From Octopus sinensis (lineage: Eukaryota): a stretch of DNA of 64,000 bases. The position numbers were made by a program, and so were the translations under genes. Below, piece after piece: positions 12,393 to 53,545 of this stretch. Every line of letters begins with the position of its first letter. The stretch's first letter is position 1. The stretch covers positions 61,132,001 through 61,196,000 of the forward strand of contig NC_043001.1 of assembly GCF_006345805.1 (NCBI RefSeq), read 5' to 3'. The notes beneath the pieces were generated by a model, which ran no database searches, was not told the origin of the DNA, and was given only the letters and a program-made list of their open reading frames with translations.

Positions 12393-12440
12393 GTCTTACA
12401 GCTGTTTCAGTGATATGAAAGATATCCCATCATCAGAGAC
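12393..12440 (-). ncRNA. Minimal type I hammerhead ribozyme motif
   Basis: Minus strand reads GUCU-CUGAUGA-UGGGAUAU(CUUUC)AUAUCACU-GAAA-CAGCUG-UA-AGAC. 4-bp stem I, palindromic stem III insert, imperfect base of stem II. Confidence 0.8.
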
Positions 12441-12745
12441 AAAATGAGAGAGCAAAATAGAAGGAATTTTGTTTCTTTATTTGTCACTTCTCCATTCGGT
12501 ACATGATGCACGGTGTTTACATACAACTATTACTTGTAATTTTATTCACTTATTTATATACATTTATTAGTATATTTAATTCGTTGCGTGATTTGAATTA
12601 TGCTTATGAATTTGTATTCGTTGCCTAGATGTGTTCCTTCTATAATTTCTCTTATCACCCGATTTAGCTCGCAATGAGCACTTCTTAATACAGCCCATAT
12701 GTTGTAAAGTATACTTAAAAATATACTTTATAAGAAACATTTAAC

Positions 12746-12980
12746 TATATATATATATGTGTGTGTGTGTGTGTGTATGTATGTATGTGCATATAGATAC
12801 ATACATATATATATATATATAGGTATGTGTATTTATATGTATATGTATGTGTACATATATATATATTATATATATATATATATATATATATATATATATA
12901 TATATATATTATATATATATATATATATATATATATATATATATATATATAATATATATATATATATATATGTATATATA
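12746..12980. repeat. (TA)n/(GT)n microsatellite
   Basis: Directly visible. Confidence 0.97.
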
Positions 12981-13299
12981 GATGTATATGCACGTGTGTG
13001 TAAATGAATATATGTACCTATACTCTTTGGGATACACAGATGGACCAAAACAAAATAACAAGTATTCAAGTGATCACTTCATCCTTACACTAGATTTAAA
13101 GAGATAGTAACAAGGACAACGACACCAGCACAATAATGAGCTACAACAACTTCACAAAATGACACTCTCTAGCAATAGTTAACGTCCTCCTTATAAAAGA
13201 AGAATTCGATTCCTTTATGTCACAAGCGTAAAAGACAAAATGGGAAACTAATCTACGGCCTTGTTTTAGAAATGCCATAAGGGTCATGCCTATTTAGCC

Positions 13300-13960
13300 A
13301 TTGCATTCTATATGGTTCATATGGTTTTAAATATCGAATATATTACGTCAAAGCGTGTCTGACTGAAAACTGGGTAATCTGATCCAGGTCAGAAAGATAT
13401 ATACGTTTTCCTATAAAACAAGACCTTTTAGCCGCAAAGCTAAAAATGCATACACTAAAACCACTTCCTATATAAAAAAAAATGAGTAAACAGCATGGCT
13501 GGGGATAAAGTATGTACGCGCGGCTGGGATTAATTGCCATACCATTGTGTAAGGACAGTCAGGTTTTGCGTCTTATAACAAGGTTGCGGGTCAGCATTGT
13601 GTTGAACTTCCTTAACAGATCATATCTCTGTGGCCAACTATAGTCAACGAATATTGAAATGGTTGCAAGTTGCAACGAAAATTTTAGTAAAAGTAAATAA
13701 GTAAATCAGTGAGTGTGTTAAATTAATAAGGCAGAAAGAGAATGACTCCCCAGACACAACAATAACGTAGTTCATAATTTATGTTGATGGCTACTGGAGG
13801 TTGATGGTGTATGTACAGATTCAGATAGAATTGGCAAATTTGAGCTTCAAGTGTGTAACAGAAGACCTTGTCAAGTATATTCCAAGGGATATTGAGTGAG
13901 TCAATCCTATGCCGACATTGTCCAGATGAAACAGGAAATATGGCTGACTGTGAACAAATG
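13300..13960 (-). mobile_element. Highly decayed Penelope-like RT remnant
   Basis: Weak motif traces only (PVSSGQC...ILDKV near 13870-13935; NGMAI near 13540). Confidence 0.3.
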
Positions 13961-14871
13961 AGGGATGTTTAAAGCGATTAGGTTTCCCAAGTGGTTACCC
14001 ATATATGTCTTCGTGTGTGTGTGTGTGTGTTTTTCTGTGTGTGACTGTTTGTCTGTGTGTGTAATACCTGGATAGCCTCTTTGAATTTAATCTGAAAATT
14101 CTACTTAAGGTATTTAATTTATATGCACATGGAAATATGCAATACTATAAATGTGGTCTTTAATTAAACTTAAATAATAGATTTTATCCAAAGGTCTCTA
14201 AAATTTTTTTTTAATACATTAAAACCGAAATAAAACGCACATATTTCTCTAAAAGATTAGAAAATGCACTGAATAACATTAATTAAATTTTATATTTTAA
14301 TAGTCACATTACAGATCACGAATTTACGCTCACCAACAGAGGAGTAAATAACTCAAGTGGTTTCTCTGTTTTACGTGTTTACGTCCATTTAACATGAAAA
14401 ACATTAAAATTAATAACAGGATTACTCATTAATTCCCATAAAGATATGTGTACCAATCTAAATAGTTTTATACATATTTTTACGTTCTAATATTCGATAT
14501 TCTACAGCACGATATATTACACGCTTACTTCCTCAGACCAAGAAACATGCACACACAATTACAGGCACAGTGTTTTCTCTCGATAATATAGATATCCAGG
14601 CTTAGTCTCGCAAATATACATGTACACTATGCATGCAATGATAAATAAAATTATTTTTATGTAGTTATTTATACGTTGTGTGTATGTGCGTGAATATGAA
14701 GGATATGTCATCCTTATTATATTCCAGTATAACATTCTCTATGCCTAAATTTCAAAAGTTTCCTAAGTATGTGATTATATAAGGAACCTGAATAAAAGTA
14801 TTACAGCAAAATAATTTTAAGTATGGTCATTCCGTTGTCAGAAACACTTTAGTATACACATTGTGGAAGCC

Positions 14872-50685: not shown

Positions 50686-51965
50686 CACTGGCGAAAATAA
50701 ATTTAAGACCGATGAGAAAAGTTCTATTTCTTACAAAATATGTTGTTACTAACACCAAAGAAATTATTTGTATCTTTTACAACTTATGCAGAATTTATTT
50801 TTCTTTTAAATGATGCAGACAATAACTAATTTTATACAACTTGAAGAATTCTAATGCTAAATTAATATAAACGTTTCAAATTTACCGGCAAAATTAGTTT
50901 AAGACAGTATAATTATAATTTTATTTAAAGCTTATGACTGTAGTAAAAATGAGCAACAAGAACGAAATACATATTAGTAATTTGTGCCGTAGCCTTTATT
51001 CTTAATAACGGCTGCACAACGCCTCGTCATAGAATTCGCTAAGTGATTACAAAATTCTATGAGAATGTTTTGCCATATTTCATTGACATAATCGAAAAAA
51101 TGTTTTAGATTAGATGGTTTTTTAGCATGGACTTTTTTGGAAACATAATTCCACAAATTCTCTCCACGTTGTGTCTGTGCCATTTTGTGTAGCTATCCAC
51201 TACTTTTAAGTAGTAATATCTATTTACCGGGCCTGCAAAACCGATATGCAATCGGGGCAATGGTATTTTCAATTCCGGTCAGGGTTCACATTTGTATTAG
51301 GTGGTTTCACTGCCAGCGCACAACCTCTGCAGCCTTTTACCAGGTTTTCAACATTTTGTCCAAGCTTAGACAGTATAATAAACTTTGCACCAGCACCTTC
51401 ATTCTAGAGAAGACTGCGTGTCCCACATAGAACTCTCTTCTGTAATGTCTGAGGAAAGATCACCCTCTGAGCGCACACTAGTAGACCATCACATATAGAG
51501 TATACGCGCACATCTTGGCGGGATTTTACATCAGAACTTTCTCTATTTCCTTTTGTCGACCACAGTTTCCTTTTCGTCTCAGTAATAAATTTGTCATTTA
51601 TCGCATATATTTTTTTTTCCAGGTTACTGGTAGTTCACGCACGATGTTCCATATCTCTATTTTTGTTTCCGCTCTTAGCACTGCTATTAAGGTGTTCTTC
51701 AGTGGTTCATTATTTCTTGGAATTAACCTAGACAGACCATCAGAACGCCCTAATTGTTTTTGAAATCAGATATTCCATTCTGTTTTCGTAGTTTAATAGA
51801 ATGGTACCCCACCGCTGAAGTTTGTTTACCGTATGTGTCGGTATTCCTTTCTTGGATCCGTATATCGTTATTAGAGGTCTATGGTCCATTTGCAACTGGC
51901 ATGAATGAAACTGTGGAACTTTTTACGCATCTTTTTCAATCTGGCTGTAGCTCTTTTCCACTGGC
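50686..51965 (-). mobile_element. Decayed Tc1-family transposon, one terminus retained
   Basis: ta|cactggcgaaaataaatttaagac terminus with inner repeat at ~50884. C-terminus ENLWNYV...EIWQNI...SMTRRCAAVIKNKGYGTNY*. Confidence 0.8.
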
Positions 51966-52156
51966 AATAACGTCTCTGATGTGTGAGCTACGGCCGGTCT
52001 CCTGTCATCCTTAATCAATTCATATATATATATATATATATATATATATATATATATGTGTGTGTGTGTGTGTGTGTGTGTGTGTATGTATGTATGTATG
52101 CATGTGTATACATATATACATACATATATATATATATATATATATATATATATGCA

Positions 52157-52718
52157 TATAAGTACATTAAAAGGCCTCTAAAAGAAGAATCAAGTACTAG
52201 ATACACAAAAAGGGGATAAATTCATGAAATGAAAATCAAAAACGTTTACAAACTCAGCTCATCTTGTACTGCAGTTTCGTCTTTTTTTTTAGCAGATGAA
52301 TATAATTTATCTGCCTAGGCTAGACTCATCAGCAAGCAGCCTTTGTCATCCTAGAAGTACATATCGTTAGAAGCATGTGCGATTCTAACGACCTGCATTC
52401 TCTAACTTTTCAGACAAGTGCGCAGACGCAAAACATACCCGGCGAACAGAGAGGATGCCGGCAGAAGGTCTACGAGCAAATTTATCGAACAATATGTAAA
52501 CATAGTAAATAGGGTAATAAAATAAATTATTATTACCTGTGTTCTAGCACAAAAGACAAATTAGTCATTAGACTATATGTTATTCATATATAAGTACATT
52601 AAAAGGCCTCTAAAAGTAGAAGCAAGTACTAGATATACAAAAAGGGGATAAATTCATGAAATGAAAATCAAAAACGTTTACAAACTCAGCTCAACTTGTA
52701 CTGCAATTTCGTCTTTTT
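52157..52718 (-). mobile_element. Retrozyme-like non-coding element: 432-bp unit with ~130-bp terminal direct repeat and hammerhead
   Basis: 52157-52286 repeats at 52589-52718 (offset 432). Complete HHR at 52263-52336; half HHR at 52695-52714. No ORF; abuts (TA)n. Confidence 0.75.
52263..52336 (-). ncRNA. Type I hammerhead ribozyme, canonical core
   Basis: CUUG-CUGAUGA-GUCU[...GCAGAU..AUCUGC...]AGAC-GAAA-CUGCAG-UA-CAAG. Predicted cleavage between 52267 and 52266. Confidence 0.9.
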
Positions 52719-52779
52719 GTTTTTTTTTTGCTCGTAGAACTTCTTATATATATGTTTATATATATATGCATATATGGAT

Positions 52780-53545
52780 ATATAACGAAAACAGAAAATG
52801 GAGATGAAATTGATGAATAACAATTTACACCAATTATCATTTATTAACTAATTACTAAAAGACAGAATCTCATCTTACAGTTGTTTCTGTTAGCGGAATT
52901 ACCATGCTTAACCACCACAATAATAATAATAGTTATCATTGTAAGTAATTAATTATACGAATTTCAATAGCGGAACTTCATAAGACCGGAAAATAAAGTA
53001 AAATATAAAAAGTAAAAAGAGAAAAGAAATAGGAGAAAGCGAGAAAACGACAATATATCAATTCATATTACATACTGTCCCTCTGGGAGACTTTCGACCG
53101 ACTAGAATTTAGAAATGGAATTGAGATAGTTATAATATTTAGTGCTACATTCCTATATACCGGATGGAAGGCTACTGCCGGCGTGGGTTAAATATATAAC
53201 AACTATAAGAGCAATTTCTTTAGGTCATAATATAAAAATAAATAGGAAGAAATATAATTAAAAAACAGATAGTTATTAAAATACATAATAACAGTCGGCT
53301 CTAATTTATTGATTTTCTGCGCATTTTACTTATTATTACATGTAGGTAGCATACCCGGACCAACCCCAGATCAGAAGTAGGAATTGTCTGGACAGTAAGA
53401 GTATACTATTGATTAGTTAATCCGTGCTAAGATAGACTTCTTTCTATCATGCAGTTGCCTATTCAGCCGCTCTGAGATCTTTCACGTGCGTCCCATGAGA
53501 ATTTGTGTGTCCCTTGCTTGACAGTGTGCTGGCCTTCTTTGTTTA
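52780..53545 (-). mobile_element. PLE-like non-coding terminal remnant with decayed hammerhead
   Basis: GAAA-CAACUG-UA-AGAU half at 52872-52887 and eroded GUCU-UAUGA at ~52977-52986. Flanked by (TA)n. Confidence 0.45.

Follow-up and report, generated by a model that had tools for sequence, protein, structure and literature searches.

Metazoan Penelope-like elements (PLEs) carry minimal hammerhead ribozymes with a core of the form CUGANGA...GAAA-palindrome-UH and a helix I of 3-5 bp, which lie in the pseudo-long terminal repeats (pLTRs) of the elements, occur as many divergent families per genome and as close pairs on opposite strands, and are mostly solo copies left by truncated elements (Cervera and De la Pena 2014, PMC4209133). 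We analyzed a stretch of 64,000 nucleotides of the 2.72-Gb Octopus sinensis genome (contig NC_043001.1; G000:C5:61,132,001-61,196,000, hereafter the window), in which an earlier reading of the letters, the original prediction, had listed six hammerhead-type motifs, here H1 to H6. The features named above recur among these motifs and their genomic relatives. It is quite likely that H1-H6 are type I hammerheads, each in the 3′ end of an insertion of its own, that these six insertions are mostly truncated and likely Penelope-derived, and that the minus orientation they have in common is likely due to chance. Unlike the hammerheads described in PMC4209133, most families here have a 6-nt palindrome, corresponding to an 8-bp helix III in the dimer, and in many the helix II domain extends over 34-100 nt, where 7-8 bp are described. 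Mollusc PLE hammerheads (Lottia, Crassostrea) are given in the supplement of that paper; no cephalopod example was present in the supplement file that was searched.

The non-LTR retrozymes of animals (PMC7229834; preprint 10.64898/2026.07.22.740005) likewise have type I hammerheads in short non-coding, PLE-linked repeats, and the likeness extends to a relative of the H4 family on contig C1 (L065, C1:4297000-4300500; genome loci outside the window are numbered L0nn), which consists of 400-bp units repeated in tandem, every one of them with a hammerhead. In L067 (C1:11611500-11615000) tandem and inverted units are mixed, and the right flank of the window holds, ~77-80 kb in (L036-L037), another tandem array with a hammerhead per unit. 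The units of these arrays measure 400-550 bp, some with an inverted block, and the arrays are retrozyme-like candidates for circular RNA. Unlike in retrozymes, none of the six window motifs belongs to a tandem of two complete ribozymes: the H4 element has a partial tandem duplicate 432 bp away (52593..52760, minus strand), which is missing from the original list, but this holds only the 3′ half of the hammerhead and lacks the 5′ core. Abundant circular RNA is a further mark of retrozymes; of the sequencing runs searched, none recorded as RNA contained the stretch. The endonuclease-bearing (EN+) PLEs of the Neptune and Nematis clades (PMC8557442) resemble the octopus elements in their C-terminal GIY-YIG domain, the cysteine motif upstream of it, a hammerhead lying close to the 3′ end, 5′ copies in partial tandem or inverted form, and (TA)n targets; clade names used for elements here are provisional and based on sequence motifs. 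In Poseidon of Anolis carolinensis (PMC11167929) the hammerhead also lies in the pLTR. Its cleavage was assayed and is protein-assisted, insertion in vitro proceeds without it, and RNA-seq reads that end at the cleavage site are lacking.

Reading the minus strand, we recovered all six predicted motifs at the positions originally given; the triplet is GUA throughout, and helices I and III are short. H2 (21461..21503) is an intact type I hammerhead whose helix III, CGAUUG, is a G-U palindrome, and H4 (52263..52336) is another, with a 47-nt helix II domain and the palindrome CUGCAG. H1 (12393..12440), enclosed in a family fragment of ~180 bp (12303-12480, minus strand), is a type I hammerhead with a helix I of 4 bp, a helix III palindrome CAGCUG and a helix II of 7 bp spoiled by one mismatch, a C>A change relative to the family alignment. 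H3 (25596..25674; helix III CAUAUG) has an intact core, but the 5′ strand of its helix II, which is paired in its relatives, was lost through a local duplication, and the segment folds no better than shuffles (z 0.1). H5 (42508..42545) is a decayed minimal hammerhead with the core CUGUUUA and helix III ACGU. H6 (52872..52986), in an element at ~52745-53421 on the minus strand, reads CUUAUGA and CAACUG where its relatives have CUGAUGA, a 90-nt helix II and CAGCUG; one G of its core has thus become U, and its palindrome is spoiled.

The original prediction counted four intact cores and two decayed ones. As to the cores this stands, since H1, H2, H3 and H4 have exact CUGANGA and GAAAC..GUA words and H5 and H6 are decayed; the broken helix II means that H3 is not an intact ribozyme, and H1 is mismatched. 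Hence two copies are whole (H2, H4), one is nearly so (H1) and three are damaged (H3, H5, H6). The H2 core is identical in 14/14 aligned relatives, and that of H4 essentially so. A strict descriptor matched H2, H3 and H4, and a second one, which tolerated one unpaired nucleotide at the base of helix II and required four pairs, matched H1, H2 and H4. Members of the H5 family in the DNA that was fetched (including L072:3526) repeatedly read CUGUAGA in place of CUGANGA, and two further families read CCGANGA; such family-level core variants may be tolerated. The motifs had also been called unrelated. They share no DNA similarity outside microsatellites, although all six probably derive from Penelope elements.

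These motifs belong to a large population. Two exact patterns were counted in the whole genome: pattern 1 (helix II of 10-30 nt, 4-nt insert, GUA) gave 9,633 matches against 444 for its reversed control, and pattern 2 (helix II of 32-67 nt, G-C closed) gave 6,057 against 19. Together this is 15,690 matches against 463 in the controls, or at least ~15,200 net, which exceeds the maximum in PMC4209133 (~9,000 in Xenopus, with ~4,000 in coelacanth); elsewhere ~5,000 hammerheads are reported for a mussel and 126,247 for the far larger axolotl genome, in the literature covered. Outside the window, 1.788 Mb was sampled (200 kb of flanks, 200 kb of arbitrary blocks and 1.388 Mb of gene bodies; 78% genic). 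It contained 25 strict motifs, one per 72 kb, which extrapolates to ~38,000 genome-wide (24,600-56,100 if the sample is typical). When decayed copies were included by homology the number rose to 124, one per 14 kb, or ~190,000 genome-wide. The density of one motif per 10 kb that had been proposed thus holds roughly for all copies and fails for intact ones, and the window, with 3 strict matches where 0.9 are expected (P 0.06), is unremarkable. The proposal of a very large and diverse ribozyme population was borne out, as the 105 motifs collected fall into 27 sequence clusters (at least 27 in ~2 Mb). That all six window motifs have GUA is not special: the strict motifs elsewhere comprise 16 GUA, 5 GUC and 4 GUU.

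To what kind of element do the motifs belong? Genome searches, with 40 candidates of each scored, were made for the families of H1, H2, H3, H4 and H6, and a first look gave 1218, 1082, 1237, 1471 and 444 candidates, respectively; membership of the H5 family was taken from relatives in fetched DNA. Identity among relatives is 85-89% for H1, 97-99% for H2 and 86-98% for H4. H2 is carried by a young non-coding element of ~290 bp (21243..21535, minus strand) that ends in (TA)n, and most of its relatives have an inverted 5′ copy, forming head-to-head minus/plus pairs. H3 lies ~800 bp 3′ of, and in the same sense as, a GIY-YIG endonuclease remnant of a truncated PLE (26473..26691, minus strand; tblastn E 5e-9 with homologue P0006). 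H5 is likewise situated 3′ of a PLE in the same sense, here a broken one (43263..45501, minus strand) in which the translated open reading frames (ORFs) contain reverse transcriptase (RT), zinc finger (CxxC) and GIY-YIG (VIY..YIG) motifs interrupted by stops; judging by its motifs it may be of Neptune type. A relative of H1 (L066) stands in sense, 3′ of PLE endonuclease remains.

Complete arrangements were found at other loci. Nine (L059-L067) were chosen from the pattern lists for paired motifs. In L063 two direct hammerheads, 4.8 kb from each other, flank frames for RT and endonuclease, and in L064 two that are separated by 3.65 kb flank a 703-aa frame; inverted pairs surround truncated frames in L059, L060 and L062, and in all five loci the paired hammerheads adjoin (TA)n; L061 and L066 have one strict motif each, within inverted repeats. 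Inverted pairs were also present in the families of H1, H2, H3, H4 and H6. The frame of L064 (L064:2886-4994, C1:41.04 Mb) is a near-intact Penelope-like RT-endonuclease between two direct hammerhead-bearing repeats, and because this family dominates the long-helix-II matches with near-identical copies, it was possibly active recently. The frame has 92 homologues (RT and endonuclease), mostly unnamed, one of them labelled GIY-YIG endonuclease by its source. Another, P0040, gave a GIY-YIG Pfam match below the cut-off (E 4e-4), the sole weak match among 10 proteins.

The palindromic helix III inserts noted originally were found in H1-H5 (CAGCUG, CGAUUG with G-U pairs, CAUAUG, CUGCAG and ACGU), H6 being mutated from CAGCUG. 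Among the strict motifs elsewhere, 19/22 are perfect palindromes and 2/22 G-U palindromes. For H1-H4, the predicted energy of the helix III self-duplex is -5.8 to -11.1 kcal/mol, and that of the monomer hairpin is +1.4 to +1.9. In PMC4209133, cleavage by a single PLE hammerhead motif was undetectable and that by dimers was low. A full element would have the motif in sense in each of two pLTRs around the RT-endonuclease frame, an arrangement shown for two other families. As suggested by published in vitro work, the two copies of a pLTR-ORF-pLTR transcript would pair via the palindromic helix III and swap strands, and the paired copies would cut after GUA and release unit-length RNA. If reverse transcription starts at the 3′ end and often stops short of the 5′ end, it would then leave solo ribozyme-bearing fragments in (TA)n. 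In a host pre-mRNA such a solo copy may be nearly inert, because it has no partner and its helix III is unstable on its own, and would be harmless either way round; selection would therefore have little reason to prefer one strand. Contigs assembled from four sequencing runs, of which three were presumed to be RNA and the fourth carried no label, were compared with 52165-53540. Short family-like ones fell over H4 (X4), which was uninformative as to strand, cleavage or locus.

A different explanation of the shared orientation had been offered, namely that the window lies inside a plus-strand gene and that selection has eliminated sense hammerheads, since these would cleave the pre-mRNA. The six motifs are indeed all on the minus strand, and copies on the plus strand are absent from -24 kb to +113 kb in window coordinates. 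No credible plus-strand motif was found in the window: neither descriptor found one, nor did homology to 27 families, and a relaxed scan gave two poor plus-strand matches (44526 and 54594), with one core mismatch and a helix III without the C-G pair. An additional minus-strand homology match at 975 was an (AAT)n artefact, and matches at 532 (plus) and 34533 (minus) were produced by a probable false family, L027_6278. In the 200 kb that flank the window, 5 strict motifs are on the plus and 1 on the minus strand. Across the assembly the strands are balanced (4815:4818 for pattern 1, 2986:3071 for pattern 2), which was not used against purging because it is expected under any hypothesis. In favor of purging, retrozymes are under-represented in Xenopus introns according to the preprint 10.64898/2026.07.22.740005, which gives no strand analysis.

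Whether sense copies are depleted was analyzed in 13 gene bodies (6 plus, 7 minus; dyneins and myosins located by domain hits), sampled in part over 1.39 Mb. Intact strict motifs were 11 sense and 6 antisense (p 0.33), and 20 and 15 when one core mismatch was allowed (of 55 relaxed matches overall, 8 expected by chance). Counting all family copies, with a homology library that was partly derived from the same gene blocks and with nested genes possible, we obtained 40 sense and 48 antisense (p 0.46; sense share 0.35-0.56), or 37 and 45 after merging close neighbours. Copies with intact core words (13:15) and decayed ones (27:33) showed the same ratio (Fisher p 0.81 on an earlier subset). None of these counts differs from 1:1, and strong purging is therefore excluded for these 13 genes. 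An earlier homology count of 43:46 was discarded and redone with a palindrome filter, because its library held the probable false family mentioned above (non-palindromic, 124 nt). Several small contigs encode dynein or myosin domains with few or tiny introns (C8320, C8595, C8702, C8740, C9183, C12461, C12600 and C12604, further C1190, C2502, C7512, C9002 and others). The chromosome-scale dynein and myosin copies differ, and these contigs probably represent a co-assembled parasite or contaminant eukaryote.

Nor was a host gene detected in the window. Among the 227 ORFs scanned with Pfam (25 long ORFs and 202 of 209 short unmasked ones; three of the remainder were excluded as microsatellite-laden and four are among the 25), there was no host domain, only transposon domains and weak matches. 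A weak BRE match at 37387-37629 was judged to be chance, since the BRE gene sits on C11. With repeats masked, T exceeded A on the sense strand in 9/10 gene blocks (mean ~+0.03 per 25 kb), so that this excess can serve, if noisily, to indicate the direction of transcription. The T/A skew of the window, +0.013, has the sign typical of sense strands but lies within the noise (gene-block mean 0.033, standard deviation 0.034). The suggested check for a plus-strand gene thus brought no host exon and an uninformative skew. Three of the six motifs (H3, H5, H6) are damaged as well. Altogether, purging is very unlikely, even though one dynein gene on C11 contains a run of six copies antisense to it. No study of orientation bias of ribozymes was found in the literature searched, in which few subscription journals were covered.

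It is also very unlikely that intronic retroelements are subject to a weak antisense bias unrelated to the ribozyme, imposed by poly(A) or splice signals, of which the window would be an extreme case. The gene copies (40:48) and independent insertions (37:45) lean in that direction, as does the H5 family in ten blocks (4 sense, 10 antisense, noted post hoc); however, the lean is not significant (p 0.44-0.46), a bias of 45:55 lifts the chance of six antisense copies only to ~0.03, and a host gene for the window is unproven. Chance orientation is the likely explanation, given that within long genes the two orientations are about equally frequent. In 43/90 pairs of neighbouring insertions both were on one strand, and when strands in the sampled blocks were simulated by coin toss, at least one run of six or more arose in 55% of cases.

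That AT-rich DNA produced these motifs by chance, as matches to a short consensus, is scarcely conceivable and is already refuted by the controls, since strict matches occurred in 0/60 local second-order Markov versions of the window, the 25 strict motifs of the 1.79-Mb sample compare with 0 in the reversed sample, both genome patterns far exceed their reversed controls, and for H1, H3 and H6 the complete motif is recovered once the family is aligned. The frequency in shuffled sequence, raised originally as a possible objection, thus does not approach that observed. With the core words alone, a helix I of at least 3 bp was found in 39/102 matches against 10.3 after partner shuffling (maximum 23 in 2000 shuffles) and in 1/27 of the reversed control. 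On the other side, H5 and H6 are poor when taken alone, and the Rfam gathering score was not reached: with RF00163, H4 scored 25.3 bits, below the 34-bit cut-off, and was the only one of the six among the matches listed (150 of 160). Seven other genome sites pass that cut-off among the 74 scored of 265,813 candidates; because so few were scored, this search yields no count. The Rfam scan of the window was swamped by microsatellite-driven microRNA matches.

Several points weigh against six Penelope-derived hammerheads that share a strand by chance. Six of six on one strand had a two-sided prior chance of 0.03, the antisense run in the C11 gene is the one run of six in the sample, and the gene-body data are compatible with a mild antisense lean (40:48). 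The gene spans were deduced from domain hits at both ends, assuming continuous assembly, and 9/13 sampled genes are dyneins, many of them probably tissue-restricted. As to the carriers, the L064, L063, L060 and L066 frames themselves gave no Pfam domain, the 1.5 kb around 7 loci of the H4 family and 7 of the H6 family contained no coding partner, and the single endonuclease match of the H2 family is on the opposite strand (L006). Self-cleavage of the window motifs is itself a prediction.

The element type is already known; what is possibly new is the number of families with a structured helix II of 40-100 nt. In 21/23 folded segments helix II spans 34-100 nt, and 12/21 have z <= -2, the damaged H3 being among the remaining 9, although its family has a structured helix II of 58 nt. 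In five members of one family group, both-sided changes occurred at 6/19 predicted pairs, with an unfavourable net covariation term (+1.32). The literature searched, again with few subscription journals and without comparison to the PLE variants of Lunse et al., contained no description of a long-helix-II PLE hammerhead and no octopus hammerhead survey; PMC13282606 mentions neither hammerhead nor ribozyme. Rather doubtfully, and only as a joint proposal, the octopus may have one of the denser hammerhead populations on record (~38,000 intact, ~190,000 with relics) together with an undescribed Penelope class, in which helix II would have grown to a structured domain of 34-100 nt in many independent families, the family-specific 6-nt palindrome would serve as a barcode for dimer formation, and the element's own protein would dock on the long helix.

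The surroundings of the motifs are ~36% GC and rich in (TA)n, (ATAG)n and (AAT)n repeats, with broken transposons recognized by Pfam domains (RT, zf-RVT, DDE_3, Tc3). Beside H1, in the opposite orientation, stands a broken Penelope-like RT and GIY-YIG element (10400..12090, plus strand), which is a separate insertion because the homology of the H1 family stops short of it. A mariner-like fragment occupies 9500-10386. An element with 139-bp terminal inverted repeats (98%) and an internal 130-nt hairpin (21536-22428) has its insertion point precisely where the H2 element has its 5′ end. A Tc1-type transposon that has DDE_3 and Tc3 domains and inverted repeats of 258 bp lies at 39476-41171, a perfect tandem of 450 bp at 46680-47616, and a long interspersed (LINE)-like RT element with (AAT)n tails and a near-identical tandem duplication (period ~2.45 kb, 99%) at 56096-62675.

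That strand purging was not borne out fits the view that solo Penelope hammerheads are near-inert in host transcripts. The octopus genome holds a large natural library of hammerhead variants, with at least 27 clusters in ~2 Mb and 6,057 exact matches of long-helix-II form, which is well suited to tests of how specific dimer formation is and of cleavage assisted by protein; with annotation, it would allow a well-powered test of the host cost of intronic ribozymes.

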